Shown in pieces: positions 6,972 to 41,679 of a stretch of 64,000 nt of DNA (position 1 is its first letter; each line of letters begins with the position of its first letter). The DNA lies in contig CBDCTH010000012.1 in the NCBI GenBank assembly GCA_965222155.1, positions 32,001 to 96,000 of the forward strand, in the 5' to 3' direction. The position numbers and the translations under genes were made by a program. The DNA is from Gammaproteobacteria bacterium. Its GTDB lineage: Bacteria; Pseudomonadota; Gammaproteobacteria; Eutrophobiales; Eutrophobiaceae. Under the pieces are notes generated by a model, which saw nothing but the letters and a program-made list of their open reading frames with translations, made no database searches and had not been told where the DNA came from.

Positions 6972-7022
6972 GCCAGTACCCCTCTTGTGATAAAGGGGAT
7001 AATGGATCATAAAATACACACT

Positions 7023-7286
7023 ATGTCGATCCCTGACGCGAAAAAATATGCCCCCGGCTATACCTATAAGCAAGGCCAGTACCTCGCCTTCATCTACTAC
7101 TACACCAAAGTCAACGGCATCGCCCCCGCTCAGGCCGATTTACAACGCTACTTCCAGGTCTCGCCCCCCTCAGTCCACCGCATGTTGACCCAATTGGAAG
7201 ACAAGGGACTCATTCGTAAACAGCCCGGCGTTGCGCGCAGCCTGTCATTGGTAATACCTGTCTATCAACTGCCACAACTTGATTGA
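7023..7286 (+). CDS. Small winged-helix protein (LexA N-terminal/MarR-like), IS630 passenger
   Basis: TYKQGQYLAFIYYY...PAQADLQRYFQVSPPSVHRMLTQLEDKGLIRKQPGVARSL resembles a LexA DNA-binding domain without the peptidase domain. Lies inside the IS ends. Confidence 0.75.
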   Translation: MSIPDAKKYAPGYTYKQGQYLAFIYYYTKVNGIAPAQADLQRYFQVSPPSVHRMLTQLEDKGLIRKQPGVARSLSLVIPVYQLPQLD

Positions 7287-24433: not shown

Positions 24434-24480
24434 ATTGTATTTTTACACGGAAATTTTCATGGATTGTACTATTCCGGTGG

Positions 24481-24554
24481 TGATAAATCGTCAGGACAGA
24501 CGATATGCACGGCGACAGCTGCCCATAGGGTTGCACACAGGAGGTACGCAATGA
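24481..24554 (+). repeat. TGA-flanked 71-bp copy of the hairpin element, overlapping the trpB start
   Basis: tgataaatcgtcaggacagacgatatgcacggcg...cgcaatga closely matches the reverse complement of 4532-4606 and is one base shorter. Confidence 0.88.
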
Positions 24555-25741
24555 ATATGCCGGATGAACACGGTCATTTTGGTGTTTATGGCGGTCGATT
24601 TGTCGCAGAGACATTGATTGAACCACTGGATGAATTGACTCGGGCTTATAAGAAGTACCTACACGATGAAGCATTCCTGGCAGAATTAGACCGTGACCTG
24701 AAGACGTTCGTGGGCCGGCCGTCACCCCTGTATCACGCGCGCAGGTGGAGCGGAAAACTGGCCGGAGCCCAGGTCTACCTCAAGCGGGAGGATTTAAATC
24801 ATACCGGCGCCCATAAGGTCAATAATACGGTCGGCCAGGCCCTGTTGGCAAAGAGAATGGGGAAAACCCGTATCATTGCAGAAACCGGCGCGGGTCAGCA
24901 CGGTGTGGCAACCGCTACCGTTGCCGCCCGCCTGGGCCTGGAGTGCGTCGTGTACATGGGCGCTGAAGATATACAGCGCCAGGCTGTGAACGTATTCCGT
25001 ATGAAGTTACTGGGGGCCGAAGTCGTAGAAGTCACCTCCGGTTCACAGACTCTGAAAGACGCCATGAATGAAGCCATGCGCGACTGGGTGAGCAATGTCG
25101 ACGATACGTTTTATATTATCGGCACCGTGGCGGGGCCGCACCCGTATCCGACATTGGTCAGGGACTTGCAGTCAATCATCGGTAGGGAAACCAGACAACA
25201 GTGTCTCGAAGCGACAGGCAAACTGCCTGATGTTCTCATGGCCTGTGTCGGTGGCGGCTCCAATGCTATAGGATTATTTTATCCGTTCCTGAATGATACA
25301 TCGGTGAAGTTAATCGGCGTGGAGGCCGGTGGCCTGGGCCTGCAGACCGACCGGCACGCGGCCCCGTTAAGCGCTGGCAAACCTGGTGTCCTGCATGGCA
25401 ACCGGACTTACCTGATGGTAGATGAGCATGGACAGATCAGGCCTACCCATTCCATTTCTGCCGGGCTTGATTATCCGGGAGTAGGTCCGGAGCATGCCTG
25501 GTTAAAGGATTGCGGCAGGGTAGAGTATGCCACGGTAAATGATACGGAGGCTATTGCTGCATTTCATGACCTTACCCGTACGGAGGGGATCATGCCGGCG
25601 CTGGAATCAAGTCATGCCCTGGCATACGCAATAAAGATAGCCGCGCAGATGGACAGGGACGCTACGATGATCATCAACCTTTCAGGCCGTGGCGATAAGG
25701 ATATTCAGACGATCGCGACCATGGAGGGAATAACACTTTAG
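24551..25741 (+). CDS. trpB: Tryptophan synthase beta chain
   Basis: [55 protein letters not shown] precedes ATG 24551. Confidence 0.97.
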
Positions 25742-25835
25742 GGCGCCCCGCCCTCGACGAGGGCAAGCTGCTCTCGTTCTCAGGGAGCTGATGAAATTAG
25801 CGGGAACTGCTGAAAATAAATCTGCTGTAAAAAAA

Positions 25836-25864
25836 TTGACATTTGAAAGAAGAATGGTTAATCT
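25836..25864 (+). promoter_or_regulatory. Candidate sigma70 promoter for the accessory cluster
   Basis: TTGACA, 17-bp spacer, TAATCT, with an A-tract upstream. It lies about 500 bp before the first gene. Confidence 0.4.
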
Positions 25865-25992
25865 CAATGGCAATTGTCTCATTAGCGGGATATTACCAAT
25901 GTCTGCATTACGTATCTGTCTAGCTGCTTGCATCAGAGGTATAAGCGATGTTGCAGGAGGTTTCGTGCGCCATGTAGCGTCTATTGCATCTA

Positions 25993-26011
25993 CCCCCCCC
26001 CCCCCCCCCCC
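25993..26011. repeat. Poly-C homopolymer (19 C)
   Basis: Counted directly. Confidence 0.9.
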
Positions 26012-26373
26012 GCATCAGACAATAGGCACTACACCTCTTATCTGAACCGGAATCCGGTCGCTGAACGCGACTTTACGCCGGATGCCTGTTTCGGCTTCGC
26101 CCCCTCCGACGCGATAGCTGTATTCCCCTTACGGTTTCTGAAGAAACCGGGCAGCGCAGCCTGCTCTGCCATCATCACCTGCGGCAATAAAGCGCCGAGT
26201 ATCTATATGCACGCGCTGGGAGTTTTGAGAACTAGGGGACAGGGGAAAGATATCTTCGGTCACTCAGAGAATTCTCACGACACTGTCCTGGCTGCTTCCA
26301 TGGTGCAGTCACTCGACAAGACCTTAGACTCGTCCGCGCACGACGTACAAAGTGCATCCTCAGCAAACTCTCT

Positions 26374-27759
26374 TTGGAGACCATCAATATGAAACAGCCT
26401 GCCAGTCAGAACCTCTTGCCCGGCATTATTTACTTCATCGGCCAAGCGCCTCGCTCCGTCATGGCAACAGTCAGGGCATGGGGCCTGAGATGCAACCGCA
26501 GTGTTTTGTTCGGAATGCTGGCTCTGGGGGTTTTTTCGTTTTTCCCCGGCCTGTCGAACGTGCAGGCGCAGGAAGATGTATCGTACATCTGGGATTGCGA
26601 TATCGAGCCGGACCCGAGTTGTATTGAATGGCCGGAGAAAAACGACATGGCCGTAGATGCGACGGTAGAGGCGCTAAAAAATAATGGCTATATGAAGATC
26701 GCCCTGCCTGCATCTGAACTTTCTCCTGATCTCCTGGAAAAATTTAACCAATTGAACATGACAGACGACTTGATGGATTGCGTTTTACTTTTTAAGAGAG
26801 AAGATGATTCCACGGCAGTAGTTTGCCCTACTGCCGTGGCAGTGCGGGAGGAAATCGAAGAGATAATTGAAGAAGCAGAAGCCTCAGTCACACGCGAGGC
26901 ATCAAGCTACTTTTCACGGACAGTGGTGAATCGGGTGCGCACCTTACGCGCCGCTGCCAAAAGTGGTTTCTCGCCTTCGACAACGCCGCAAACCACCTCG
27001 CAAGATGCCGTGACCGGGCTCAATGCGGGGGACAATACAGCCACAAGGCTTATCGATAACGTAGCGATTGATCTCGGGGGAAGCGGTACGCGCTCCAGGG
27101 GACGCTTCGACAATGCGTCCGTGTACATGCTGGCTACCACCGACAGGGTGCTTAATACGCAGTCTGTCTTGGGATTAGGTCTGGGAGTCGAGCATTCGTG
27201 GGGCGAGTATCAAGTCGCAGAGCTGGATCGCGAATCGACAGGTCTGACCCTGACTGCGTACGGCGCGCGCATACTCAATAAGAATTTCCTCGTGCTGCCT
27301 CACGCCGCCGTGACCTATTTGCGCAAGCGCACGGAACAAGCTCAGATTAAACAACGCGCCGATGCTTGGCGCGCGATGGGGTCACTGGCACTGCTGGGAC
27401 AACATGCGATGGATACCGTCAATCTGAGTGGAGTGGGCCAGTTTGTCTATACCCATGACACCTATGGAGATGCCAGCGTCATGACTGGCGCTGGTGACGA
27501 CCTGTATGTAGGTCAGGGGGTCTTGAGCGGGGAAGTGGCGTTCGTGGCGGATAAAAGAATCCATCCCTTCCTCGGCGTGACCGGAAGCTACGATCTGGTT
27601 CGAAGCACTTCCACCGGCGAGCGGTTCGGTTACGAGATTTCCGCCGGACTTCGTTCAACCTCAGCCTCGGGGCCGGCTATGGCCGCATTGATTTCCTATG
27701 GCAGACGCGACGATGAAAAGACCAAAAGCGGTAGTCTTTTCTTAAAGTTTTCCTGGTGA
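26374..27759 (+). CDS. Autotransporter-like outer-membrane beta-barrel protein with a small Cys-containing passenger
   Basis: Signal peptide ending SNVQA-Q; C-terminal alternating strands (VLGLGLGVE, GLTLTAYGA, IHPFLGVTGSYD) and an aromatic terminus LFLKFSW. Start codon uncertain. Confidence 0.65.
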   Translation: METINMKQPASQNLLPGIIYFIGQAPRSVMATVRAWGLRCNRSVLFGMLALGVFSFFPGLSNVQAQEDVSYIWDCDIEPDPSCIEWPEKNDMAVDATVEALKNNGYMKIALPASELSPDLLEKFNQLNMTDDLMDCVLLFKREDDSTAVVCPTAVAVREEIEEIIEEAEASVTREASSYFSRTVVNRVRTLRAAAKSGFSPSTTPQTTSQDAVTGLNAGDNTATRLIDNVAIDLGGSGTRSRGRFDNASVYMLATTDRVLNTQSVLGLGLGVEHSWGEYQVAELDRESTGLTLTAYGARILNKNFLVLPHAAVTYLRKRTEQAQIKQRADAWRAMGSLALLGQHAMDTVNLSGVGQFVYTHDTYGDASVMTGAGDDLYVGQGVLSGEVAFVADKRIHPFLGVTGSYDLVRSTSTGERFGYEISAGLRSTSASGPAMAALISYGRRDDEKTKSGSLFLKFSW

Positions 27760-27825
27760 TGAGTCACTGACCCGCCGGAGGACTAAACCCACTGTTAACC
27801 TGTTAACCCTAAGGAGATTCAGACA

Positions 27826-28464
27826 ATGAATAATCATTCTTTCTCAAAACCTGTCAGTAAGTCGATACCGTGCTCAAGCTGGAAATATGCTGTCGGATTC
27901 GGTCGGTTTCTTGTAGTGGCGGGCCTGCTCGCGGTCTTTTCAGCCTGCACGCCGGAGAACATAAAGGTCGTTGAAGTGCCTGTTGAAACGCCCAAGTGTG
28001 AACTGCGTGACTTGCACCAGGCCAACAAGTTCGTCACCGAAGCGTGGGCGGTGCCGGACAGCCAGTTCAACGTGGGTGAACCACTTAGCTTGCAGACACG
28101 GGTCAGCTCACCTTCCTATATGAACATCTTTTACGTGAGTACCTCGTGCAAAGTCACCCGATTGTTGGACAACGAGTGGGTTTCGAAGGATGAAACCGGC
28201 GCAATTATCGGTTTTCCACGTCGCAACAGCGGGATACAGATGGAATTAAAGCCGCCGGCAGGCGAAGAAGCCTTCTACTTTGTGGCGACCCGCCAGAAGC
28301 TGGTATTTCTGGCGAGTAAGGATATTTTGCGCGAAGCGAACGGAATCGCCAGTCTTGACATGAACCCGGAGCAGTTCTACGGAAGGTTGGAACAGGCGCG
28401 TAGACGCATCAATCCGGACGAATGGAGTATTACAACCCTCCGGACGTCCGTTATCAGTCACTGA
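27826..28464 (+). CDS. DUF4384-like domain lipoprotein
   Basis: AAGGAG upstream; lipobox FSA-C; FNVGEPLSL..SYMNIFYV..KVTRL..PPAGEE pattern. Confidence 0.72.
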   Translation: MNNHSFSKPVSKSIPCSSWKYAVGFGRFLVVAGLLAVFSACTPENIKVVEVPVETPKCELRDLHQANKFVTEAWAVPDSQFNVGEPLSLQTRVSSPSYMNIFYVSTSCKVTRLLDNEWVSKDETGAIIGFPRRNSGIQMELKPPAGEEAFYFVATRQKLVFLASKDILREANGIASLDMNPEQFYGRLEQARRRINPDEWSITTLRTSVISH

Positions 28465-28589
28465 AATCAGAAGGGCGAACTGGGCCGGCATCACTCAAAG
28501 CGTTTTACGGAATGTGCGCAAGCAGACAGGCCCGGTATCGCTCCCCGGATTAAGGTGAACCATTTAACTTTAAGAGAGGAGACAACACC

Positions 28590-29234
28590 ATGAAAACGAT
28601 AATCAAATCCATGACCGGCCGGCGTGTCAGGAACGCCGTGTACGGGGCTGTGTGCGCGAGCCTGATCCAGGCCGTAAGCATGGCGCCCGCACAAGCGGAT
28701 GACGCCAACGAGGAGTCTTACCTGAAGGATCTGGACATCCGCCAGGTTGCCATAGCCAAGATCGAAGAGACTCAGACCCTATCCGAGACATCTCCGAGCA
28801 AGCTGAAGGTCTCTGCATCGGTGAACCGGGCAGACCACACTTATAACCACGGCGACAAGGTTGTGCTCACCATCAAGACCACCAAAGACGCCTATGTGTA
28901 TGTCCTCGACACCGGTACCAGCGGTAAAGTGCACCAGATTTTCCCAAATAAATACGCGCAAGAGAATTTCGTGAAAGCAAATGTGCCTGTCGCCATTCCT
29001 GCCGATGACATGTACGATTTCGTCGTTTCGCATCCCAAAGGGCCGGAACTGCTCACCGTCATTGCATCCACCGACGCTTCACCCTTGACCGATAACCTGA
29101 TCGATGGCTCGGCAGGCCCGTTCATGGCATTACGCGGAACGGCAGAGTCAGTGGCCAAGGACCTTAGTGTGTCTCTGCGCCGCGATCAGCACAAGGATAA
29201 GGATATTTCGAATCTGGTGCTATATATCAAATAG
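28590..29234 (+). CDS. Exported DUF4384-domain protein
   Basis: Signal peptide ending AQA; YNHGDKVVL..DAYVYVLD..GKVHQIFPN..PKGPELLTVIAS. Confidence 0.78.
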   Translation: MKTIIKSMTGRRVRNAVYGAVCASLIQAVSMAPAQADDANEESYLKDLDIRQVAIAKIEETQTLSETSPSKLKVSASVNRADHTYNHGDKVVLTIKTTKDAYVYVLDTGTSGKVHQIFPNKYAQENFVKANVPVAIPADDMYDFVVSHPKGPELLTVIASTDASPLTDNLIDGSAGPFMALRGTAESVAKDLSVSLRRDQHKDKDISNLVLYIK

Positions 29235-29331
29235 TGGCAAATAGTGGGAATTCCCAAAACTCCTTGCAGACGTATCAACCTTGACGCCCGCGCGCTGGTT
29301 CAGAGTACGATCCCAAGTGGAGAGACTGCCG

Positions 29332-31368
29332 ATGCTTGATTCAGTGTCGCCCAGGTCAGCAGACGCTTCCCGCATGATTGCCGTCTCCCTGTGTCTGCTG
29401 ACCTTGATGGTGTATCGGGTGAGTGCCGACGAGATCATTGATGCGCACGACATCGTGCGGCAGATAGCACCGGCCGATCCCGGTTTGAACAACACGCGCG
29501 GGATCGGAGTCGAATACGCATCACCGGCAGATGATTTCCGCAGAATTGCCTTGCCTGCTATTGAATTCGAGTTCAATTCCGACCGGTTGACAAACCGGGC
29601 CATACGGCAATTGGTTGAATTGGCCCGGGCATTGAGAGCGGAGAAGCTCCAATCCTTTTTCTTCGCGGTACAAGGGCATACCGACAGTATCGGGGGTGAA
29701 ATCTACAATCGCGGGCTTTCCTGGCGTCGGGCCCGCACGGTAAAGCGCTATCTCTCCCGGGAGCAGGGGTTGTCCGAGAACCGTCTTGTGGAGGTCGGGC
29801 TGGGGGAAGGGTTTCCCATCGCGGGCATCCCGTCGGATGACGAACGCAACCGACGTGTCGAAGTGGTGAACCTGGGTTCGACGCCAACCCCTCCGGCGGC
29901 GGCCCCTGCGGGTGAAGGGAAGCGGGTACGGACGAAACGAGCCCTCCTGATCGGGATAGATAAATACGAACAGGTCTCCCGCCTGAACGGACCCGTGAAC
30001 GATGCCAGACAAATGCGGGACTTTATCTCAGAGTATCTCCAGTACGACCCCGAGCAAGACATCAAGCTGTTGTTTGATGAAGATGCGACCCGGGCCAACA
30101 TCCTGGCTGAGATAGAGAACTGGCTCATCGCGCCGACCGTGTCGGGCGATGAGGTCTTCCTGTTCTTCAGCGGCCATGGCTACCAACAATCGGACCACAA
30201 CCTGGATGAGGCGGATGGACTGGATGAGACCTGGGTGCCGGTGGATGTGGCCGTGCAGAAAGATGGTAGCGTTCAGGGAATGATCACAGACGACGAGATC
30301 GCGCAGCAGTTGGTTCGGTTGCAGGGAAGGGAAGTCTACATCGTGATCGATGCCTGCCATTCCGGTACGGTAACGCGCAGTATTGGCGATTGGCGCTATG
30401 TGAAAACCCCTCATCTGCCCGATGGGCGGCCACTTCGTCTGCCGGCGTCTGGCGCAGACGCACGGACGCGCGGGGTGGGAAACACCGGATTCCAGCCCGA
30501 ACAATTCGTCTCTGCCGAGGCGCCTGGTGTCACCGTCTGGACGGCAGTCAGGGCGGACCAGAAGGCGCTCGTGGACGAGGAGACGCCTGAACACAATCGC
30601 AGCAGTGTGTTTACCCGACGCTTGCTTTGGGGCGTACGCGACGGCAGGGCGGACTGGAACCGGGACGGCATCGTGATAAGACGCGAGCTGCAAAGTTATG
30701 TTCTCAAGCAGTCGTTAGCGTACTGCGAGCGGCATAAAACCACTTGTGACCCCAGCCGCGGTTTAACACCGCAGTTCTATGCATCCACGGCGCAAGTTTT
30801 TCAAGAGCCCGCCTTTGGGCTGACGCGCACGGCCCTGCCGCGGGCTGCTGCTCTGGCCAAGGATATCCTCATCAGTCCGCCCGACAATAATGGTATACCG
30901 AGCGAAGATCGGTTGCGGTTGAGCATGAAACCGGCATCGAAGATAAGGGTTGGCGCCGAACTCGAGATCGTGGTCGAGAGTGATAGAGACGGGCATCTTG
31001 TCTTGCTTGACATCGACGCGAATAATCGCTTGGTGCAAGTGTTTCCCAACGAACCCGGCCTTAAAGCGGGCTTCTCCCCTTGGATTCAGGCGGGGCGGCC
31101 GATGACTATCCCAGGAGAAGGCGCCGGGTTCCGATACCGTGCCACGCCTCCGACAGGACGCGGCGAATTGATCGCCGTGGTCTCAAAAGAAAATCCCCGC
31201 GTAGGGAAATTGACCTCAAGATACAAGGATCTGTCTGTCGTTCCAGATTCGGAGGCCTACCTTGTCGAGTTATGGGAAGCGTTGCGCCGCGGAGCGGCAG
31301 AGCAAGAGGACAGGGCTCATAGCGAGTGGATCATGGGAAAAATCAAGTACGAAATCGTTTCTCAGTAA
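29332..31368 (+). CDS. Exported OmpA-like + caspase-family (peptidase C14) + DUF4384 fusion protein
   Basis: Signal ending VSA-D. OmpA motifs FEFNSD, QGHTD, YNRGLS..RA and NRRVE. Caspase motifs ALLIGIDKY, GPVNDA, FFSGHG and IDACHSG. C-terminal VGAELEI..GHLVLLD..QVFPN..PPTG. Confidence 0.88.
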   Translation: MLDSVSPRSADASRMIAVSLCLLTLMVYRVSADEIIDAHDIVRQIAPADPGLNNTRGIGVEYASPADDFRRIALPAIEFEFNSDRLTNRAIRQLVELARALRAEKLQSFFFAVQGHTDSIGGEIYNRGLSWRRARTVKRYLSREQGLSENRLVEVGLGEGFPIAGIPSDDERNRRVEVVNLGSTPTPPAAAPAGEGKRVRTKRALLIGIDKYEQVSRLNGPVNDARQMRDFISEYLQYDPEQDIKLLFDEDATRANILAEIENWLIAPTVSGDEVFLFFSGHGYQQSDHNLDEADGLDETWVPVDVAVQKDGSVQGMITDDEIAQQLVRLQGREVYIVIDACHSGTVTRSIGDWRYVKTPHLPDGRPLRLPASGADARTRGVGNTGFQPEQFVSAEAPGVTVWTAVRADQKALVDEETPEHNRSSVFTRRLLWGVRDGRADWNRDGIVIRRELQSYVLKQSLAYCERHKTTCDPSRGLTPQFYASTAQVFQEPAFGLTRTALPRAAALAKDILISPPDNNGIPSEDRLRLSMKPASKIRVGAELEIVVESDRDGHLVLLDIDANNRLVQVFPNEPGLKAGFSPWIQAGRPMTIPGEGAGFRYRATPPTGRGELIAVVSKENPRVGKLTSRYKDLSVVPDSEAYLVELWEALRRGAAEQEDRAHSEWIMGKIKYEIVSQ

Positions 31369-31450
31369 GGTGGCCCATGGCGTTGAACAGTCCTGACACA
31401 AACTTTCGGCCCGCATTTCCCATAAACAGAGGCATCCTTGCTGGGTTGCT

Positions 31451-33976
31451 ATGGCAACAAAGGGACAAACTCATAGCAACTCATCGACAATAGCGGATTT
31501 TTTATTCATGACCAGTGATTTTATCAGAACAGTGGACCGGCTCTGCCCTGACAGCATTGAGCGCGGCAGGCATCAAGTGTGGTTCCTGTGTCTTGTCATG
31601 TGGATGGCGCTAACAGGCGCCCCAGCGTCGGTGGAGGCGCAAGGCCTCAGCCAGTTGCGTAATTCTTCGCGGAACCTGACACGTCATAGCCTTGAAGCGA
31701 TCCGCACGATCATCCGACCCACACTCGGCATCGTCCAAGGGCGGGCTGGTGCCGTTACCGGACTGCATCTCAATAATGACCGGAGTCTGCTGCTTGTGGT
31801 GCTCGGGGACGGAAGCGTGCGTTTTTGGGATTTGGAACGCGGTGTGCAGCTCGGTTCCGCGATCGGGCGCACACTTGTTTCGGGTGCGTTTCGTGGGGGC
31901 GGGAGCGATGCCGTCGCGGTGCGCCGCGAGGGTTCCCTGGTCCTGGTTCAGGCAGACGGAACAATCCGACGTCTACGGGAGAGTACAGGCGCTTCCCCAA
32001 GCCCGGCGCCGGTCGTATCCGGCGATGGGCGCAGCGTGGTGTTCCACACAGCTGACGGTGATTGGTACTGGATGCACGTCGATTCGAACTCGCGCCAACG
32101 GCTTGATGATGCCGGGCGCGACCTCCGGCCGATTCTGTCTCATGATGGTTTGAAGGTGGCATACCACACGAACCGGGGCGTCTGGGCTGTGCGTTCCCTT
32201 GACGCTCATGGCGCCAAGGGAGCGGAGGTCGAACTCGGTACGTGCGTGCAAGATGAAGTTCGGGCATTGACCGGCGCCTTCACGCCGGACGGCAGCCGGA
32301 TTGTATTCGGTGATGAGCAGGGTGGATTTTGTACATGGCTTGTTTCCGGACCGGGAAGCCCCAAGCGACTCAGCGCTCGGCGAGCCGCGTATCCGGGAGC
32401 GATCAGGTTGCTTGCAATCGGGCCGGATGGCAAGCAGGTCGCGCTTGGTGGGCATGACGCCACGGTGGCGGTCTGGTCTGTTGCGCCTGTCCGGCGCCGG
32501 GCCACACTGGAATTGACCGGAGAGCGTCCTCGTTCTCTCCTGCTGGATACCGGACGCGGCTGGCTGTTCACTGGCGAGGACAACGGAACAGTCGGTATTT
32601 ATTCCCTCCGCAACAAGCTGCGTATTGCGCGCCTGGTGTCCATGGATCGCGGTTGGGCAGTGTTGGATCGCGCAGGACGCTTCGACGGCTCTCAAAATGG
32701 GTTTGACAGTCTGGTCTGGGCGGGTGAGGCCGAGGAGGATACACGCCCCCTCGACGCCTTCTCGGAAAGTTATTTCGAGCCCGGCCTCCTCCTCAGGCTC
32801 GACGATGCGTCGCCTGTGTTCTTGAATGAGAATATCCGCGACCTGTCCGAGGATGGCTATGTTCGCCCGCCCAAGGTCAGTATTGATCCGGTAAGCGCGC
32901 AAGCCGCCGACCAACAAGGGCACTTGTCGCTACGGGTCAGGGTCGAGCCTGGCTATTGCTGTGAAGTCTCTGAAATCCGTCTGTATCACAACGGTAAACT
33001 GGTCCCGGCAGACCGCGCTGAGGCCTCCCCTGGCGACATGATCGACTACCTGGTTCAGCCACTGCCCGGCGAGAACAGCTTCGATGCGATCGGGGTAGGA
33101 CCAGGAGGGGTAGACGGACCAAAAGCATCGACAACGGTGATGCTGGACTTACCGGAACCGTCGGCCCCGTCCATTCAGATAGTCGCGGTCGGGATCAACG
33201 AGTACAACGGACCCCTGAGGAAGCTGCGTTTCAGTCGTAACGACGCCGAAACCATCCTGGACACCCTGCACAAACGAGCAAACACCACGTTCGCCAGCGT
33301 GAAAGCGATTAAGTTGCTGGATTCATCTGCAAATTTCCATGCAATCGAAGAGCATATTATAGAAACCACGCTAGCGCCACACGACGTGCTGGTGGTTTAC
33401 TTGGCCGGTCATGGCTACGCCTTGAATAAAGACGGGCGCTGGGAATGGTATTTTCTGCCCTTCACCACAGCTTGGGGTGAACATGCCGGGTTGGACTGGG
33501 AAAAGGAGATGAAGACGATGATCCCTCGCCATGGGTTGTCCAGCCGGCAGTTGCTGAATTTTCTGACGAAGACCGCGCCGCGCCGAGTGTTTTTTATTCT
33601 CGATTCATGCCGGTCCGGTGCGGTAGTTGACACGATGAAGCATTTCGGCGGGCAGGAGCTCACCGATTCGGCGGGACAAAAGATGCTGCACAAGCTCGGG
33701 CGCGTGGGGGGTATTCACGTGTTGGCGGCAACGCGGGCGGACCAGGACGCGGTGGAACTGATTTCCGCTCCGCACGGTGCTTTGACCTATCTGGTCCTGC
33801 ATGGATTGGAAGGCGCCGCCGACGAGAATCAGGATAGCCGGTTTTCCGTACGTGAGCTGATCGGCTACGCAAACCGAGGGATGCCCCTGCTCTCCCGGCA
33901 ACTCGTCCAGGATAATATCAGCCAGAATCCTGTCGGCTATTCGCACGGTGAGGACTTTGTACTCGGCAAATTATAA
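31451..33976 (+). CDS. WD40 beta-propeller + beta-rich linker + caspase-family (C14) protein with an N-terminal signal/hydrophobic segment
   Basis: GDGSVRFWD, FTPDGSRIV, GHDATVAVW, GRFDG, IRLYHNGKLV. Caspase motifs VAVGINEY, YLAGHG, ILDSCRSG and HGALTY. Confidence 0.86.
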   Translation: MATKGQTHSNSSTIADFLFMTSDFIRTVDRLCPDSIERGRHQVWFLCLVMWMALTGAPASVEAQGLSQLRNSSRNLTRHSLEAIRTIIRPTLGIVQGRAGAVTGLHLNNDRSLLLVVLGDGSVRFWDLERGVQLGSAIGRTLVSGAFRGGGSDAVAVRREGSLVLVQADGTIRRLRESTGASPSPAPVVSGDGRSVVFHTADGDWYWMHVDSNSRQRLDDAGRDLRPILSHDGLKVAYHTNRGVWAVRSLDAHGAKGAEVELGTCVQDEVRALTGAFTPDGSRIVFGDEQGGFCTWLVSGPGSPKRLSARRAAYPGAIRLLAIGPDGKQVALGGHDATVAVWSVAPVRRRATLELTGERPRSLLLDTGRGWLFTGEDNGTVGIYSLRNKLRIARLVSMDRGWAVLDRAGRFDGSQNGFDSLVWAGEAEEDTRPLDAFSESYFEPGLLLRLDDASPVFLNENIRDLSEDGYVRPPKVSIDPVSAQAADQQGHLSLRVRVEPGYCCEVSEIRLYHNGKLVPADRAEASPGDMIDYLVQPLPGENSFDAIGVGPGGVDGPKASTTVMLDLPEPSAPSIQIVAVGINEYNGPLRKLRFSRNDAETILDTLHKRANTTFASVKAIKLLDSSANFHAIEEHIIETTLAPHDVLVVYLAGHGYALNKDGRWEWYFLPFTTAWGEHAGLDWEKEMKTMIPRHGLSSRQLLNFLTKTAPRRVFFILDSCRSGAVVDTMKHFGGQELTDSAGQKMLHKLGRVGGIHVLAATRADQDAVELISAPHGALTYLVLHGLEGAADENQDSRFSVRELIGYANRGMPLLSRQLVQDNISQNPVGYSHGEDFVLGKL

Positions 33977-34055
33977 CCGGCGGTGCGGTGAGCGATACCC
34001 CTGCCTCAGGCTCGCTGCAGCGCGGGCCGGCGCGTATCGTGCCTCTCATCAGCGA

Positions 34056-34131
34056 CACCAGTCTGCCGGGAGCAGATTTGGACGCTCGAAGGGCACCCGC
34101 CGGACATATGTCAGGGAACGCCGCATATCAA
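34056..34131 (+). repeat. Degenerate member of the ~72-bp hairpin element family
   Basis: agtctgccgggagcagatttgg (first hairpin), followed by short GC hairpins and atatg/catat. TGA ends are not intact. Confidence 0.5.
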
Positions 34132-34154
34132 TAATCCAGCCAGCCGCAACCATA

Positions 34155-35012
34155 GTGTACCCAAGCGTGCTCACAGCAACCCATTACGAGAAATGCAGGC
34201 AGGGCGTTTCGCTTATCGCCTTCATATGGGTCGTGGCAGGCTGCTCAGTGTTGGAGTCGTCCGTAGCGCCAGGGGTTTGTCCGGATCCAGCGTGTGCGGA
34301 TTGGGAGTTTCTCCCGTTCTCGCACAAGGGGACCCCGCTGGTTGGCTTCCGCAAGCCCGGTGGCGCTGACTCAGGCCATCTGGTCGTTTACATCGAGGGC
34401 GATGGAAAGGGATGGCGAAACCGGTCCAGGCTGTCCGGAAACCCGACACCGGGAGACCCGATCGGGTTACGACTGGCGCTACAGGACTCAAGCCCCGGGT
34501 TGCTCTATCTGGCGCGCCCCTGCCAGTATGTCCAACCCGAACTGCTCGAACACTGCCAGCCGTCGCTCTGGTCAACTGGCCGTTATGCGGAGCATATCGT
34601 AGAGACGATGGATCGTGCTGTCAGCGCGGCAAAGCACGCTCAATCCGACCGGCTTACCCTGGTGGGATATTCCGGCGGTGGGGTGATCGCGGCGCTGCTG
34701 GCCTCGCGCCGGTCGGATGTGGAGCGGTTGATTACGGTCGCCGCCCCCCTGGACACAGATACCTGGGTTAAGCATCACCGCGTGTCACCCCTGACGGAAT
34801 CCTTGAACCCGCTTACAAGCGCGATCACGGGTTCGGTGCGTGAATTTCACTTCCATGGCGAGCGGGACCAGATAGTGCCTCCCGAAGTCATCAAGCCGTA
34901 CATCCGTCAGGCTGCCCGCGCCGGCGTCCGGTTCTTCACGCTGGCCGAGTATGACCATGGCTGCTGCTGGGTACGCGACTGGCCGGCATTGCTGGCCATG
35001 ACGGATGAGTGA
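34155..35012 (+). CDS. Alpha/beta-hydrolase lipoprotein (esterase/lipase-like)
   Basis: Lipobox VAG-C, VYIEGDG, YLARPCQY, nucleophile elbow GYSGGG, GERDQIVP, DHGCCW. Start codon uncertain (the ORF is open from 33948). Confidence 0.8.
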   Translation: MYPSVLTATHYEKCRQGVSLIAFIWVVAGCSVLESSVAPGVCPDPACADWEFLPFSHKGTPLVGFRKPGGADSGHLVVYIEGDGKGWRNRSRLSGNPTPGDPIGLRLALQDSSPGLLYLARPCQYVQPELLEHCQPSLWSTGRYAEHIVETMDRAVSAAKHAQSDRLTLVGYSGGGVIAALLASRRSDVERLITVAAPLDTDTWVKHHRVSPLTESLNPLTSAITGSVREFHFHGERDQIVPPEVIKPYIRQAARAGVRFFTLAEYDHGCCWVRDWPALLAMTDE

Positions 35013-35169
35013 GAAATGCGGACTGGTAATTCAATCTGTGACGATCATGCCTGCCCTGGTCAGCTGCTTTGTGGGCCGGACTGGGCTTGTTCAAATCTGA
35101 AGACGCTGGACGAGCATATCAGTCATATCACCTGCCTTTTATTGACTATCTAACACAGGAGAAAGAAAC

Positions 35170-37404
35170 ATGGCGACGACTATTTACGAAGATAAGGGGG
35201 ACGCAGCTGCCGGCTCAGAAGCCAGCTATTCAATGTCTGTCAGCGATATATCTTCGGCCTTTGAGTATCCCTTCACTGGTGTCTATGTGGGTGCTCATAG
35301 CACGCCAACTTTTGTCGACCTGGACAGCGACAGCGACCTGGATCTGATCATAGGCGCGGGTAACGGCAACCTGTACTACTACGAGAACACGGGTACGCGC
35401 AGCCAGCCGAACTTCACTGCACCCGCCGTTAGCGCCAATCCGCTGGGTGGTGTTAATGTGGATTCCGACAGCGCCCCGACCTTTGCTGATCTGGACGATG
35501 ATGGCGACCTGGACCTGATCGTAGGCGCGGGTAACGGCAACCTGTACTACTACGAGAACACGGGTACGCGCAGCCAGCCGAACTTCACTGCACTCGCCGG
35601 CACTGCCAATCCCCTGAGTGACGTCTCTGTAGGTTATGAAGACATCGTGCCAACCTTTGCTGACCTGGACGATGATGGTGACCTGGACCTGGTCATGGGT
35701 GAGTATTACGGCGGTCTGTACTACTATGAAAACATCGGTACGCGCAGCCAACCGGACTTCACACGTACCGATGTCATCAATCCTCTATATAGCATTTATG
35801 TGGCGGGAACACATCACGTTCCTGTCTTTGTCGACTTGGACGACGACGGTGACTTGGACTTGGTGGTGGGTAAGCATGATGGCGACTTGCTCTACTACGA
35901 GAACATGGGCACAAGCAGTCAGCCTGATTTCACAGAGCGTACCGGTGATGCTAATCCAATGAATGGCATTGATAAGGGTGATCATAGCACGCCAGCCTTT
36001 GCCGACTTGGATGACGATGGTGACTTGGACTTGGTCATGGGTGAGGGCGAATTTCCGGATGAGCTTCCGGATCCGATGGACGACAGGCTACTCTACTACG
36101 AGAATACCGGCACGCGCACCAAAGCAAGTTTTACTTTTATTCCCGCTAATACATCGCGCATTGATGGTACTGATGCTGATGATCACCTCATTGGTGACGA
36201 CATGGACAATGAGATATACGGGAAAGGAGGTAACGACATACTGCAGGGTAAGGGTGGTAATGACAAGCTAAATGGCGAAGCTGGGAACGATACCGCTTCC
36301 TACATCGACTCGAACGCCGGTGTGCAGGTCAATCTAGATGCGGGCGATGCTGCGGGAGGCAGCGCGGCAGGTGACACGTTAATCAGCGTTGAGAATCTCA
36401 CTGGGTCCAAGCACGCTGATACCCTGACCGGCGACAACAATAATAATACTCTCAAGGGTCTTGAGGGCGACGACACGCTGGATGGCGGTGCAGGCGACGA
36501 TACACTTGCCGGTGGCGCCGACGCTGATACGTTGGCAGGCGATGACGGCAACGACACACTGGATGGTGGTGCCGGCGACGATACGCTTATCGGTGGTGCC
36601 GGCAGCGACACGCTTATCGGTGGCGGGGGCAGCGACACCGTATCTTATGCTGGTTCGGACAAACCTGTGGCAGTCCTCCTGAGCTACGGTCACCTTGTTC
36701 AACAAGGGCATGCCCAGGGCGATACGTTGAGCGGTATCGAGAACCTCATGGGTTCCGAACACAATGACCTGCTGCTGGGTGATGGCAATGCCAACCGGCT
36801 TACAGGTGGTGACGGCGACGACGCGTTGAATGGCTATGGTGGTGACGATGAACTGGAAGGCGGCGGCGGCGCCGATGATATGGAAGGCGGTAGTGGGGGT
36901 AGTGATACCGTGTCCTATGCAGCCTCGGACGCGGGGGTAACGGTAGACCTTCAAACCCAGTCCGCCAGTGGTGGCCATGCTCAGGGAGACAGGATCTCCG
37001 GCTTTGAAAACGTCACCGGGTCTGACCACGCAGATACGCTGATTGGCTCCGACGGCGCGAACCGACTCAAGAGTGGTTACGGTGATGATACGCTGACCGG
37101 CGGCGCCGGCGAAGATGTTTTCATCTTCGCCTATAACATAGTCCTAGTCCTAGGCCCAGCCGGTTACTACGACGATTTAATTGTTGCTAATGGAAAAGAC
37201 ACGATCACTGACTTTGCCGATGGTGAGGACAGGATCGAGATCGAGCTTGGTGTGTTCGGAATTGAAGATTTCGACGACCTGCAAGAGAAGATCACACAGG
37301 ATGGAAACAACACGCTGATCACCTTCGATGCCGATAACGGGATTACCCTGGAGAATGTAGACATGGCTATCATTGGCGCCGACGACTTCATCTTTGTAGC
37401 CTGA
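35170..37404 (+). CDS. FG-GAP/VCBS-repeat + RTX calcium-binding repeat protein (likely type I secretion substrate/adhesin)
   Basis: Five PxFxDLDxDxDLDL..YYEN units at ~57-aa period, many GGxGxD nonapeptides, C-terminus ADDFIFVA, no signal peptide, AGGAG upstream. Confidence 0.88.
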   Translation: MATTIYEDKGDAAAGSEASYSMSVSDISSAFEYPFTGVYVGAHSTPTFVDLDSDSDLDLIIGAGNGNLYYYENTGTRSQPNFTAPAVSANPLGGVNVDSDSAPTFADLDDDGDLDLIVGAGNGNLYYYENTGTRSQPNFTALAGTANPLSDVSVGYEDIVPTFADLDDDGDLDLVMGEYYGGLYYYENIGTRSQPDFTRTDVINPLYSIYVAGTHHVPVFVDLDDDGDLDLVVGKHDGDLLYYENMGTSSQPDFTERTGDANPMNGIDKGDHSTPAFADLDDDGDLDLVMGEGEFPDELPDPMDDRLLYYENTGTRTKASFTFIPANTSRIDGTDADDHLIGDDMDNEIYGKGGNDILQGKGGNDKLNGEAGNDTASYIDSNAGVQVNLDAGDAAGGSAAGDTLISVENLTGSKHADTLTGDNNNNTLKGLEGDDTLDGGAGDDTLAGGADADTLAGDDGNDTLDGGAGDDTLIGGAGSDTLIGGGGSDTVSYAGSDKPVAVLLSYGHLVQQGHAQGDTLSGIENLMGSEHNDLLLGDGNANRLTGGDGDDALNGYGGDDELEGGGGADDMEGGSGGSDTVSYAASDAGVTVDLQTQSASGGHAQGDRISGFENVTGSDHADTLIGSDGANRLKSGYGDDTLTGGAGEDVFIFAYNIVLVLGPAGYYDDLIVANGKDTITDFADGEDRIEIELGVFGIEDFDDLQEKITQDGNNTLITFDADNGITLENVDMAIIGADDFIFVA

Positions 37405-37494
37405 CCTGGCAATCTGCTGACCAGCCCCCAAACTCTCATGATCAGGGCTTTGCACACCCCGACGGCATGTAACTAAAACAACTAGGGGAGCAAC

Positions 37495-38083
37495 ATGACT
37501 GTTCTGAAAAAAGATAACGGCACTGCGGCGCCTACAGGTGCTCGTGGTCAGTACAAGATGGCCATTGACGAGGACTTGCGGGGCACGCTCAACAACACCA
37601 CTGGTGATAGGAGCAATCCTGTTGCTGACATTGATGGGGGTTATAGCAGCATCCCAACCTTTGCCGACCTGGACAGCGACGGTGACCTGGACCTGGTCGT
37701 GGGTGAGGTCGGATGCCGGGGTGACGGTGAATCTCAAAGACGGCACAGATGAATGAGGTCATGCTGAGGGTGATGTGATTGTTGATGTGTAGAGCGTAGT
37801 TGGTTCAGACTATGAGGATACCCTGACTAGCAACGACGGTGCTAACCGGCTGTACGGCGGTCCCGGCGCCGATACCGTTATTTTTGCGCCTGGGAACGGG
37901 GACGACCTCATCGGTGACTTTACCGATGGCGAGGACTTGATTGACCTCACTGGCTTCGACGATCTCGAAGCGTCGGGCGATGCAGAGGGGGTCACGCTCG
38001 ACCTGTCGGCCCAGGACGGGGGAACGATCCGGCTGGCAGACTTTGATATGGCTGACCTGGATGCGGCGGACTTTATTCTTTGA
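37495..38083 (+). pseudogene. Internally deleted and frameshifted paralogue of the FG-GAP/RTX protein
   Basis: One PTFADLDSDGDLDLVVGE unit joined to SDAGVTVNL, then LYGGPGAD, DFTDGEDLIDL and the terminus LDAADFIL, with stops in between. Confidence 0.78.
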
Positions 38084-38151
38084 CGGATTCTGAATTCTGG
38101 GGACAGGATATTTGGGGGAACTGCTGCTCCATCACGCCGGCAAAACAAACG

Positions 38152-38829
38152 CTAACGGGAGCTACCGGTCGGCTTGATTTCTTTCAGGAGTGAATTTGCT
38201 GCTACGGCAATAATATTACGGTCCATTGGATAATTTTCTTTCCCTGCGTGAATGATATACAGTCTTTTCAGGTGCAAATCATCCATTGCTATGCGCATTG
38301 ATTTAGTCACTTTTGGCGAGTCGGTGCGCTTGAATTCAACACCGGACCGCTGCCTGCCGTGAGTTATCATCAAATCGAGTTCTGCCCCTGAATGCGTTAC
38401 CCAAAAATAGCATTGATCCCACTCTGCCTTGGACTGCTGTACAACCTGTTCCAGTAGAAAACCTTCCCAACTCGCCCCGAGTTTGGGATGTGTATCCAGG
38501 TCATGAAAGGATTTTATACCGAGTTGAGCGTGCAGCAATCCACTATCCCTTATATACAGTTTAGGAGATTTTACTACCCGTTTACCGATATTTTCGGACC
38601 AGGGTTGCAGCAAACGCACTGCAAAAGTGGCGCTGAGAATGTCCAGGTATTTTCCTATGGTCGTATGGGATACGCCTTCAAGATCGAACCAATTTACGTT
38701 GTTTGAGCTTTGTCCCGCGAGCTGTCTTGCGAGGCTTGTTTTACCGACCTGCCGAGCGCCAAGTAAGGCGACAACCGGGTAATTTTTGCTCAGGCGATTT
38801 ATTGCAGATAGATGTGTGGCACGTAGTAT
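38152..38829 (-). pseudogene. AAA+ ATPase/DUF4143 protein with a large in-frame internal deletion and no evident start codon
   Basis: One frame reads PVVALLGARQVGKTSLARQ..WFDLE directly into GVSHTTIGKYLDIL..KSPKLYIRDSGL..ELDL..VEFK. The Walker B region is absent. Confidence 0.8.
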
Positions 38830-39071
38830 ATGTTTTTTCGTTCTTGAAATCTGAAACTATCTGTTTCAGATTTCAAGGTATTCCCATCTAACACAGGGTC
38901 TGCCGGGTTCGGAAAAGTGCTGAAACCAGGCGATTTGTTGCACTTATGACTTGAATTCGCCAGTATATTGGTTACAGAATAAAGATTATTATCAGGGAGA
39001 CAGGCGAGTTGCGGGAATCACTACCGGTCTTGGCTCAGACTGGTGGGCAAACGTAACGACAGGAGAGTGCC

Positions 39072-41471
39072 ATGCAAGAAGTCAGCATCGAATACAACAG
39101 GAACCGGGCGGCCCTGGTACAACTACTGGAGTCAATCGACCGTCCCGGGGATTATTGCACCCATGGCAGGTTGTTCGTGCCGATGCCTCGAATAGAGGTC
39201 GACCAAGTGGGGACGATCGCATTTCCGGTTCTGGAGATGCAAACTCAGGCCTTGATCAGGGCGGCGGAACGCGCCCCCTACGGTCGGGGGCCGGAGACGC
39301 TGATAGACGACACCGTTCGCGCTGGGTGGCAACTCGACGCGAAAAAAGTCCACTTGGGCGGTGATGGCTGGAAAAACACTTTTACTCAGATCCTGGGCGA
39401 AGTGTCGACAGGGCTGGGTTACCCGGTTGAACAGGTCTGTGCGGAATTCTACAAGTTGCTGATCTATGGACCCGGCGGGTTCTTTTCGGCTCACCGCGAC
39501 ACCGAGAAGAAAGACGGTATGGTCGCCACGCTGGTTATCGCCCTCCCGACTGCCGGCGCCGGCGGCGAACTGGTCATCGACCATAAGGGACGCAAGACCG
39601 TTGTCGACATGGGTCCCCGAGACCCGTCTGAGTTGGCATTTGCGGCCTTTTTCGCTGATTGCGTACACGAGGTCCGAGCGGTCACTGAGGGATATCGCAT
39701 CACACTTACCTATAACTTGATCCTGCAAAATGGCGCTACGGGCGCGGCGCCCGGAAACGCGCCGTATTACGGAGACCAGGTAGAGACTATCGCTACCCTG
39801 CTCTCGGAATGGGGCCGCGACGACGAGGCGGAGGATAAGATCGTCTGGCTGCTGGAACACGATTACAGCGAGGCGGGCCTCTCCTTCGCTACCTTGAAGA
39901 ACGTCGATGCCGCGCTTGGACGGGTCCTCACGCAGGCCGCGAGGCGCGCCGATTGTGCGCTTTACGCGGCGATTTTACACATTGAGGAATATGGCAACGC
40001 GGAATACGTGGACATTGACTATTTCGAGAGGGGCCACGGCCGTGGTTACTATGGTGGTCCCGACGAATTGGACTACGAGATGGGTGAACTGGTCGAGGCC
40101 TGGCACTGGCTTGAAGGATGGACCGCCCCCGACGGCATAAAACCGGAATATGAAAAAATTCCGTTGCTGCCTGAAGAACTGCTGCCCCCCGACGCATTGG
40201 ACGACGCTGAGCCGGACGAGCAAAGGGTGAACGAAGCCAGCGGCAACGAAGGTGTCAGCGTGGAACGCGCCTATCGCCGCGCGGCCCTTGTGTTATGGCC
40301 AAACGCAAAGACCTTGGCGAACCTTGTACAGGGCGGAATCACAGGCGCTATCAACCACGTCGAGGCGGAACTCGAACGTAGCGCCGGGCAGGCGGAAGCG
40401 GAGGGTCGGATACGGAAACTGTTTGCTCAACTAATCGATCTCTGGCCACCGCTATCCCCCTACCTGGAGAGCCGTAATGGAGAAGACCGCAGCAGGATGC
40501 TGCGCCTGCTGCACACGCTTACAGATAAGGCCATGACCAGACGTTTCCTGCACCAGGTAATGATACCGCACTACCGCAGCAGTGATAACGAGGACTTGGT
40601 GATCGCAGCGGCGAAGATCGGCCCTGAAGGAATGAGGGACTTCTTGTCAGATTTCGTCGCAATGAATCTGCCGAAGCAGACGGCCGCTGTTATCGAACTG
40701 GTGTGGCGCCTTTGTAAACAACTTGACGGACAGGAGGGTGACGCATGGCGAGCTATACTCAGGGACGCCGCGCGGGCCGTCTACCGCGGGCTGCCGCTTG
40801 TCGTGGAACCACCGAAAGACGACGAATCGCCCTGGCGCCGACGCCGGATAGAGCCGTTTGCCGTGCAGACCATCCGGGATCTTTTTCTGCCGGCTTGTCG
40901 TCTGGACCTTGAGAACAAGGCAAACGACGCTGCCATGCTGCTCACCGGATATCCCCAAATCGTTATACCGGAGCGCGCGCTTCCGCAGGCTTTGGCGGAA
41001 CTACAAACTCTTGCGGAGCCCTTGCTGAAAACCACCACTTTTACGACGCTCTGGTGTCATGCGGCCAGGCACCTGCTGGCGCGCAGCGCGACGCCGCCCA
41101 AGGAACCACAGGATTGGGTCCTCACCGTCAAAATTGGATGTGACTGCCGGCATTGCCGGACATTACAAGTTTTCTGCAATGATCCCATGGCAACGACGAC
41201 ACGTTTCGCAGTACGGCAGGAACTGCGCAGCCACCTGCGTCATACCATCAAATACCACCAACTCGACATACACTATGAGACCGAACGCCGTGGCCGGCCC
41301 TATACGCTCATTTGTACAAAAACCCGGGACAGCTACAAGCGGAGACTTGCGCAATACACCAAGGACATTGAACACATGCAGATGCTGATAGCATCAGCGC
41401 CACCGGACCGGGCACCGGCGTGGAGCGGCGCTGACGACCTGGAACGGCTGCGCACGGCAGTCGCACCTTGA
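39072..41471 (+). CDS. Large 2OG-Fe(II) oxygenase-family protein with a long helical C-terminal region
   Basis: YKLLIYGPGGFFSAHRDTEK (HxD), GGELVI, DCVHEV...GYRITLTYNL; C-terminal CDCRHC; AGGAG upstream. Confidence 0.85.
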   Translation: MQEVSIEYNRNRAALVQLLESIDRPGDYCTHGRLFVPMPRIEVDQVGTIAFPVLEMQTQALIRAAERAPYGRGPETLIDDTVRAGWQLDAKKVHLGGDGWKNTFTQILGEVSTGLGYPVEQVCAEFYKLLIYGPGGFFSAHRDTEKKDGMVATLVIALPTAGAGGELVIDHKGRKTVVDMGPRDPSELAFAAFFADCVHEVRAVTEGYRITLTYNLILQNGATGAAPGNAPYYGDQVETIATLLSEWGRDDEAEDKIVWLLEHDYSEAGLSFATLKNVDAALGRVLTQAARRADCALYAAILHIEEYGNAEYVDIDYFERGHGRGYYGGPDELDYEMGELVEAWHWLEGWTAPDGIKPEYEKIPLLPEELLPPDALDDAEPDEQRVNEASGNEGVSVERAYRRAALVLWPNAKTLANLVQGGITGAINHVEAELERSAGQAEAEGRIRKLFAQLIDLWPPLSPYLESRNGEDRSRMLRLLHTLTDKAMTRRFLHQVMIPHYRSSDNEDLVIAAAKIGPEGMRDFLSDFVAMNLPKQTAAVIELVWRLCKQLDGQEGDAWRAILRDAARAVYRGLPLVVEPPKDDESPWRRRRIEPFAVQTIRDLFLPACRLDLENKANDAAMLLTGYPQIVIPERALPQALAELQTLAEPLLKTTTFTTLWCHAARHLLARSATPPKEPQDWVLTVKIGCDCRHCRTLQVFCNDPMATTTRFAVRQELRSHLRHTIKYHQLDIHYETERRGRPYTLICTKTRDSYKRRLAQYTKDIEHMQMLIASAPPDRAPAWSGADDLERLRTAVAP

Positions 41472-41597
41472 GAAAACGGAATGTGATGTAATTGAAACCA
41501 ACCCCAACTCTCTTTTCCAGGGACGGCTGACATGTGAATAGAAGGTTGTGGGGCAGGCGAACCACGCCAACACAATGATAGGCTGGGTTTATAAAAT

Positions 41598-41621
41598 GGG
41601 GACAGATTTAAATCTGTCCCC
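41598..41621. repeat. GGGGAC...GTCCCC palindrome, copy 1
   Basis: Perfect palindrome ggggacagatttaaatctgtcccc, followed by a partial repeat aaatctgtcc. Confidence 0.88.
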
Positions 41622-41679
41622 AAATCTGTCCTTTTCTGGTAATCTTACACCTTGGAAAAATTTTAAACTTCATCAACCC

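Follow-up and report, generated by a model that had tools for sequence, protein, structure and literature searches.

A six-gene cassette with two predicted extracytoplasmic caspase-type proteases and DUF4384 proteins, inserted between trpB and trpA in a gammaproteobacterium

Introduction

Bacterial relatives of the caspases have been studied almost only as cytoplasmic proteins, whether as orthocaspases, as activators of gasdermins or as the Craspase. Here we describe a cassette of six genes (g1 to g6) at positions 26374-35012 of a 64,000-nucleotide (nt) stretch of a Gammaproteobacteria genome (assembly GCA_965222155.1, contig CBDCTH010000012.1, contig positions 32,001 to 96,000; hereafter the window). 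The cassette is a compact, testable and transferable case of predicted caspase-type proteolysis outside the cytoplasm, supplying two intact proteases of family C14 (g4 and g5), a wall anchor, candidate DUF4384 partners and candidate cleavage motifs. An understanding of the cassette would give DUF4384 a role, would explain why exported C14/OmpA/DUF4384 clusters recur in many lineages, and would reveal whether the bacterial envelope harbours protease cascades.

The nearest relatives of the g4 C14 domain by sequence are the type I metacaspases (yeast Yca1/Mca1, PDB 4F6O; Trypanosoma brucei MCA2, PDB 4AF8) and the bacterial orthocaspases, with which it shares the catalytic dyad and both Asp residues of the S1 pocket. 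Type I metacaspases have a Pro-rich or zinc-finger prodomain and are cytoplasmic, whereas g4 combines a signal peptide and an OmpA-like wall anchor with a C-terminal DUF4384 module and is predicted to be periplasmic. In a survey of prokaryotic metacaspases (Asplund-Samuelsson et al. 2012; PMC3501461), as far as its accessible text goes, WD40 is the commonest accessory domain, N-terminal helices are considered as possible signal peptides with an extracellular localisation of some metacaspases, 23 operons hold more than one C14 domain, and OmpA occurs in 14 metacaspase operons. The same text names no system and assigns no function, and a cassette of five to six genes with an autotransporter, two free DUF4384 proteins and an OmpA fusion is not described in it. 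DUF4384 has been noted on orthocaspases in two further papers (PMC7475262, PMC6426788), and a Craspase preprint places the domain in one group of Csx30 proteins. Like the type III-E Craspase (Csx29, a TPR-CHAT protease, with its substrate Csx30), the cassette may pair a caspase-fold protease with a partner protein on which it acts. Craspase, however, is cytoplasmic, RNA-guided and built on CHAT, whereas the cassette has C14 domains and is predicted to be periplasmic; Pfam found no CHAT or Cas domain in it, and DUF4384 is the sole link between the two.

Control of a surface protein by a periplasmic cysteine protease is known from the LapG/LapD/LapA system of Pseudomonas, on which one of the alternatives weighed below is modelled. 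That system, whose protease is of another family, is controlled through cyclic di-GMP and acts on an RTX adhesin that leaves by type I secretion and carries a periplasmic retention module; none of these features was found in the cassette.

Our literature search returned no functional description of such a cassette or of any DUF4384 system, although survey supplements may list the architecture. No literature was found under the names periplasmic, extracytoplasmic, secreted or extracellular caspase or metacaspase, or caspase-like lipoprotein, and none of the best-matching literature combined a metacaspase or orthocaspase with an autotransporter or an OmpA-like domain. An earlier reading of the window made from its letters without database searches (the sequence-only reading) had called the arrangement undescribed. 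This stands for function and is weakened for composition, since surveys already note C14 with DUF4384, C14 with WD40, and OmpA in metacaspase operons (PMC3501461, PMC7475262). The cassette is a variant within the exported caspase homologues of prokaryotes, a class that has been surveyed but whose function is unstudied.

Results and Discussion

Gene content of the cassette

Gene content was established from open reading frame (ORF) calls and Pfam searches at curated cut-offs. The interval holds six co-oriented ORFs on the + strand, separated by intergenic gaps of 46-190 nt, as the sequence-only reading had laid them out:

g1, 26461..27759, + strand: signal peptide, passenger of ~95 amino acids (aa), helical linker and C-terminal autotransporter-type beta-domain (probable)
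g2, 27826..28464, + strand: DUF4384 lipoprotein; lipobox ...VFSAC; DUF4384 at 44.1 bits against a cut-off of 27
g3, 28590..29234, + strand: predicted periplasmic DUF4384 protein; DUF4384 at 83.7 bits against a cut-off of 27
g4, 29281..31368, + strand: signal peptide, OmpA-like domain, metacaspase-type C14 domain and DUF4384 module
g5, 31451..33976, + strand: signal peptide, WD40 propeller, conserved middle region and C14 domain
g6, 34167..35012, + strand: lipoprotein, putative alpha/beta-hydrolase; lipobox VVAGC; accessory component

The longest ORF of g1 opens at a TTG at 26374. That of g6 opens at 33948, though the protein probably starts at the GTG at 34155 or 34167 and then has the leader of a standard lipoprotein. 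The Pfam check that had been proposed for these genes placed DUF4384 in g2, g3 and g4, C14 in g4 and g5, and single OmpA and WD40 matches all above cut-off. The three forms of DUF4384 first read from the letters, namely a lipoprotein, a soluble protein and a fusion to a caspase, correspond to g2, g3 and g4 respectively.

The two caspase-type proteases

In g4, Pfam matches OmpA at 61.9 bits (cut-off 27.2), Peptidase_C14 at 79.3 (cut-off 21.4) and DUF4384 at 58.4 (cut-off 27). In g5, WD40 is matched at 32.4 bits (cut-off 27) and Peptidase_C14 at 28.7 (cut-off 21.4), and several further propeller families match the propeller below their own cut-offs. The domains lie as follows:

g4 OmpA-like domain, nt 29566-29853
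g4 C14 domain, nt 29935-30642; His299 at 30175-30177, Cys359 at 30355-30357
g4 DUF4384 module, nt 30946-31191; bracketed by K527-D528 and K649-D650
g5 WD40 beta-propeller, about nt 31733-32635
g5 C14 domain, nt 33185-33838; His654 at 33410-33412, Cys720 at 33608-33610

Both enzymes have the complete His/Cys dyads reported from the sequence-only reading, within the motifs SGHG and DACHSG in g4 and AGHG and DSCRSG in g5. H299 and C359 of g4 are invariant in 36/36 aligned sequences, as are H654 and C720 of g5 in 9/9. The C-terminus of g5 matches the g4 C14 profile with 99% probability (E 9.4e-18), with GHG and D-x-C-x-SG in register. The g4 domain is nearest to the type I metacaspases, with profile E-values of 3.4e-30 to Yca1 and 7.5e-20 to T. 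brucei MCA2. The two S1-pocket Asp residues of MCA2 (TbMCA2 Asp95 and Asp211) align with g4 D241 and D357, and through the alignment of the g5 and g4 profiles the same positions are occupied in g5 by D598 and D718. In PMC6426788 these two Asp residues are described as highly important in accommodating basic substrate residues. The aligned Asp residues of g4 therefore predict cleavage after Arg or Lys, and we expect the same preference of both C14 proteases.

An acidic stretch of g4, DHNLDEADGLDE, aligns with EDLDGDEEDGMDD, the Ca2+ site of Yca1. The C14 domain of g5 is more divergent than that of g4 and is without this stretch. The g4 linker that follows the catalytic Cys (residues 361-407) is rich in Arg and Lys and has low model confidence; as a hint of autoprocessing it is only suggestive. 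In the OmpA-like domain of g4, T134, D135, N143, L146, S147, R150 and A151 are invariant in 36/36 sequences. These are presumably the residues that contact peptidoglycan, and their retention is consistent with the wall-binding role first proposed for the domain.

Two leads were set aside. A single-sequence search of PDB with the g5 C14 domain returned only designed-propeller matches, judged spurious, and an analogy of g5 and g4 to TolB-Pal was dropped, weak NCBIfam matches being its sole basis. A DUF4384 domain hidden in g5 was looked for and not found.

DUF4384 proteins and their K-D motifs

Profile comparison shows the three DUF4384 regions to be homologous, at 97% between g3 and the C-terminal module of g4 and at 96.6% between g2 and g3. 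The AlphaFold2 model of g3 is a beta-sandwich with a mean predicted local distance difference test score (pLDDT) of 71, most of the core (residues 72-214) being above 80. Its fold matches by VIA-align are generic, the best being an S-layer domain (Z 9.1), with macroglobulin domains at Z 7.4-7.8. With g3, Foldseek gave nothing at E <= 0.001, a sequence search of PDB gave no relative, and the ESM Atlas gave no lead, with every score <0.9. On the model, then, we claim no specific fold family for g3, the matches being those of a generic beta-sandwich.

What sets these modules apart is a pair of short motifs at their edges. K-D-[L/I] motifs are invariant on either side of both the g3 module (K46-D47-L48 and K190-D191) and the g4 module (K527-D528 and K649-D650). 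Anchoring on the FPN motif of DUF4384 and seeking K-D-[LIVM] on both flanks (background 6% per search window), we found the pair in 20/20 core cassette modules (defined below) and in 0/57 other DUF4384 modules. Since cleavage after basic residues is expected of both proteases, the K-D motifs are candidate cleavage sites. A complex prediction for g4 (residues 216-695) with g3 (residues 40-214) scored 0.00; it was run without controls and counts neither for nor against an interaction.

Residues 107-120 of g3, DTGTSGKVHQIFPN, are conserved in 43/43 g3-family proteins, with D, TGTSG and PN invariant. The likeness of DTGTSG to the DTG(T/S) motif of aspartic proteases is treated as coincidence, because the segment lies at a predicted hairpin and unrelated residues occupy this place in other DUF4384 domains.

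Two features of g2 orthologues may be recorded here. The orthologue in locus L015 (8289-9662) is 457 aa long and carries two g2-type modules in tandem. In several others (L013, L020, L016 and L021), (VEVP)n repeats that look like a rigid spacer follow directly on the lipobox.

Export signals and predicted compartment

Export signals were read by eye from the N-termini, with conservation in orthologues as the test. The lipobox Cys41 of g2 is invariant in 10/10 sequences and the g6 lipobox is present in 4/4, while g1, g3, g4 and g5 and their orthologues all begin with a charged N-terminus followed by a hydrophobic stretch and an A-x-A-like site. The signal peptide of g1 ends ...VQA|QE and that of g3 ends AQA|DD. 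All six products thus look exported, with signals kept in the orthologues, in keeping with the initial view that every product leaves the cytoplasm. Cys residues are conserved as invariant pairs in g2 (C58/C108), g4 (C482/C489) and g5 (C265/C294), and g6 has six that are invariant, consistent with an oxidising compartment. From these sequence features we predict that the cassette proteins reside in the periplasm or envelope, not in the cytoplasm.

The probable autotransporter g1 and the putative hydrolase g6

The g1 protein of the window has no Pfam match, and only ~25 relatives were found among 1.84 billion representative proteins. A profile of the family aligns over g1 residues 136-420 with proteins that carry PF03797, at 99.9% probability (E 1.9e-31). 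The C-terminal ~300 residues give eight distant matches, and all six of those scanned carry PF03797. The same profile had no match in PDB. The ~95-aa passenger has four Cys, and the protein ends ...KFSW, where the family consensus ends in F. We regard g1 as a probable small type-Va autotransporter on these sequence comparisons. The outer-membrane barrel of the sequence-only reading is hence retained as a probable beta-domain, supported by the profile, whereas its role as a mere anchor is not, given the variable surface passenger.

For g6, Pfam gave sub-threshold alpha/beta-hydrolase matches only, the best being Hydrolase_4 at 24.9 bits against 27, and no relative below E 0.02 was found among solved structures. 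Ser169 of the GYSGG motif, Asp234, His264 and the six Cys are invariant in 4/4 sequences. Its proposed part as a lipase-like effector is weakened: g6 occurs in just 3 of the 11 related loci described next, and is therefore unlikely to be a general effector and is better described as an accessory component.

Recurrence in other genomes

The combination of OmpA, C14 and DUF4384 is common to all of the 120 best among 663 g4 relatives (E <= 0.001), and g3-like proteins form about 179 clusters. Scanning genome contigs with the g4 sequence alone gave no relative, whereas an alignment-based scan succeeded; from it we surveyed the best 80 of 570 stretches encoding g4 relatives, with one genome per species. 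Eleven of these 80 (L013-L023) encode full-architecture orthologues of g4 and are here called core loci.

In 10 of the 11 core loci, g2 and g3 stand directly upstream of g4. A g5-type gene follows g4 in nine, at full length in eight and as a 323-aa propeller part only in L021; L023 ends inside g4. An autotransporter gene lies within the cluster in 10/11. It is of the g1 type in L013, L015, L016 and L023, and exactly the six loci L014 and L017-L021 have a second autotransporter family with repeat-rich passengers. Four of these six pass the PF03797 cut-off, and their passengers give weak, sub-threshold fn3 and LapA matches and one Calx-beta match over the cut-off. By title, the hosts are Candidatus (Ca.) Spongiihabitans, Ca. 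Binatia (three), Alphaproteobacteria (four metagenome-assembled genomes, MAGs), Gammaproteobacteria and an unclassified bacterium, the nearest orthologue being in a MAG titled Ca. Spongiihabitans. Beyond the core clusters no flanking gene family is shared, except for one family in four loci. Because gene order is kept across phyla, the grouping is beyond chance, and the six-gene set is a real unit. Co-occurrence in other genomes, on which the sequence-only reading had staked its proposal, was found and does not refute it.

One Alphaproteobacteria MAG (isolate p16x34bins.43) has the cassette twice, as L017 and L021 on separate contigs, the g5 of L021 being the 323-aa propeller ORF.

The wider group of exported C14, DUF4384 and OmpA clusters

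Among the 69 non-core loci, C14 and DUF4384 are joined in one ORF in 51, a second C14 gene lies within 6 kb in 27, an OmpA gene is present in 14 and a free DUF4384 gene in nine; 10 loci have both a second C14 gene and OmpA. Two were annotated with Pfam, one from Thiocystis violacea DSM 207 (L044) and one from a Desulfocicer MAG (L059). They encode C14-DUF4384, TPR-OmpA, C14-FGE-sulfatase and free DUF4384 proteins, all with N-terminal signal-like sequences. As in the cassette, then, an exported C14-DUF4384 protein is accompanied by an OmpA-like wall binder, a second C14 protein and free DUF4384 proteins. Unlike the cassette, these clusters have OmpA on a separate TPR protein, join the second caspase to FGE-sulfatase instead of WD40, and are without the paired K-D motifs. 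That OmpA is a separate gene in the wider clusters and fused in the cassette argues for a functional link.

The Desulfocicer locus also has an exported TPR-CHAT protease and a DUF3160 protein amid its C14, DUF4384 and OmpA genes (3977-6613, - strand; 12318-14216, + strand).

Genomic setting and acquisition

The window reads leuB-asd-fimV-truA-trpF-trpB ... trpA-accD, with ~15.8 kb separating trpB from trpA. Flanks identified by Pfam delimit the insertion as follows:

trpB, 24464-25741: left flank of the insertion
Insertion between trpB and trpA, 25742..41547, no strand: ~15.8 kb, the cassette and unrelated cargo
trpA, 41548-42489: right flank of the insertion

In 12/15 genomes of the same genus about 250 nt at most separate trpB from trpA (the other three have no trpB in the 1.5-kb flank), and the two genes are adjacent in 7/7 genomes of other families. 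A search of 22 same-genus genomes turned up no g4 relative at full length, only weak partial matches in two of them. The g3 family appeared in 2/400 genomes sampled from the class, namely the window's own and one with a partial match (E 2e-17). The only three DUF4384 and the only two C14 domains of the genome are all in the cassette. The flanks have 80-92% protein identity to congeners and the contig is about 3 Mb or more, which makes a binning artefact unlikely; the contamination score of the assembly is 7.28%. An integrase, a tRNA and flanking direct repeats were sought at the insertion and none was found, and scans for promoters and terminators did no better than on shuffled sequence. In all, the cassette is a horizontally acquired, self-contained element.

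Interpretation and alternatives

The reading we favour, putting it a little short of an even chance, is that the cassette encodes an envelope protease module for regulated, limited, Lys/Arg-specific proteolysis in the periplasm, anchored to the wall. The OmpA-like domain of g4 would hold a metacaspase-type enzyme on peptidoglycan, g5 would be a second, soluble caspase-type enzyme whose WD40 propeller binds a partner or ligand, and the DUF4384 proteins g2 (lipid-anchored) and g3 (soluble) would be docking partners or substrates, with the K-D motifs that bracket the g3 and g4 modules as candidate cleavage sites. The autotransporter, with its variable surface passenger, would be the outer-membrane, surface-facing component, and the output would be a changed envelope or surface state. 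The localisation and linkage proposed in the sequence-only reading are thereby supported; its cascade, with the WD40-caspase as sensor or initiator and the DUF4384 proteins as adaptors, inhibitors or substrates, is a putative scheme. Several observations weigh against this reading. Locus L022 has g4 without partner genes, g6 is missing from most core loci, and no significant relation was found between the g1 family and the second autotransporter family. Direct PF03797 matches to the g1 family are weak and confined to 2/15 members, the window protein not among them. The export signals were judged by eye only, the inter-domain arrangement in the g4 model is uncertain (predicted template modelling score 0.46), and the K-D motifs, which in the model stand just before beta-strands, may equally be structural. 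A more specific scheme, which we consider improbable, is an extracytoplasmic caspase relay: the propeller-caspase, activated by a ligand from the periplasm or the surface, would activate or act with the wall-tethered, Ca-dependent metacaspase, which would excise DUF4384 modules at the K-D sites, its own included, and thereby alter how the outer membrane is joined to the wall or what state the surface autotransporter is in. If true, such a relay would be a mobile plug-in device for envelope signalling or execution without a described counterpart.

There are other possible explanations for the cassette. It might be an envelope defence or programmed-lysis module, with the passenger or propeller sensing phage, predators or damage and the caspases cutting envelope tethers so that the cell lyses or sheds vesicles. 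Caspase and WD40 are a typical pairing of conflict systems, and the inserted island with its patchy distribution across phyla, the variable passenger and a Zorya-like island in the same window (below) would all fit. We nonetheless think defence unlikely, as PADLOC 2.0 called no system (giving a generic caspase model and weak ZorB/MotB matches to the OmpA domain) and no phage or other defence genes are regularly attached in the core loci. The autotransporter present in every complete cassette would fit processing of a surface protein, in which the periplasmic proteases would control display or release of an autotransporter adhesin, as LapG does for LapA, and thereby attachment in a host or biofilm. 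The repeat-rich passengers of six cassettes, whose weak fn3, LapA and Calx-beta matches suggest adhesin-like repeats, would suit such a role, as would the nearest orthologue, whose host name, Ca. Spongiihabitans, occurs in the sponge-microbiome literature. Yet once folded, a type-Va autotransporter leaves almost nothing exposed on its periplasmic side, the ~95-aa passenger of g1 in the window is without an adhesin domain, and the hint of habitat is confined to the one Ca. Spongiihabitans record; we think adhesin control as unlikely as defence. Far less probable is a sortase-like transpeptidase, by which a wall-bound C14 enzyme would cut at K-D sites and ligate DUF4384 proteins to one another or to the peptidoglycan, forming a tether or periplasmic lattice. 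The OmpA-like domain would bring stem peptides beside the g4 active site, g2 orthologues have the Pro-rich (VEVP)n spacers, and S-layer and biofilm-scaffold domains are among the folds that g3 matches best; such matches at Z 7-9 are, however, common for beta-sandwiches, and we know of no established transpeptidation by C14 enzymes. We give almost no credence to the view that unrelated envelope genes merely stand side by side. Variation of g6 and of the autotransporter type between loci would agree with it, as would the solitary g4 of L022, but the order g2-g3-g4-g5 recurs across phyla, in MAGs whose flanks are unrelated, OmpA is fused here and separate in related clusters, and all C14 and DUF4384 domains of this genome are inside the cassette.

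Other genes of the insertion and window

Directly after the cassette lies a gene for a 744-aa FG-GAP/VCBS and RTX-repeat protein (35170-37404, + strand) built of 171-nt tandem units, for which no counterpart was found beside the cassette in other loci, and behind it a short FG-GAP fragment (37495-37752, + strand). The match of a 155-aa ORF (38152-38619, - strand) to DUF4143 is confined to the C-terminal part of the profile (positions 61-159 of 160), and the ORF is probably the remnant of an AAA-ATPase gene within the insertion. The insertion further encodes a 799-aa protein (39072-41471, + strand) in which a 2OG-Fe(II) oxygenase domain lies towards the N-terminus and no domain was recognised in the remainder.

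Elsewhere in the window, a stretch of low G+C content (0.42-0.45) at 8755-16274 (- strand), together with 5847-7073 (- strand), holds four genes in Zorya-type order, encoding a 603-aa coiled-coil protein, an OmpA/MotB-like protein, an EH_Signature protein and an SNF2 helicase with an Mrr nuclease, with a DDE transposase alongside.

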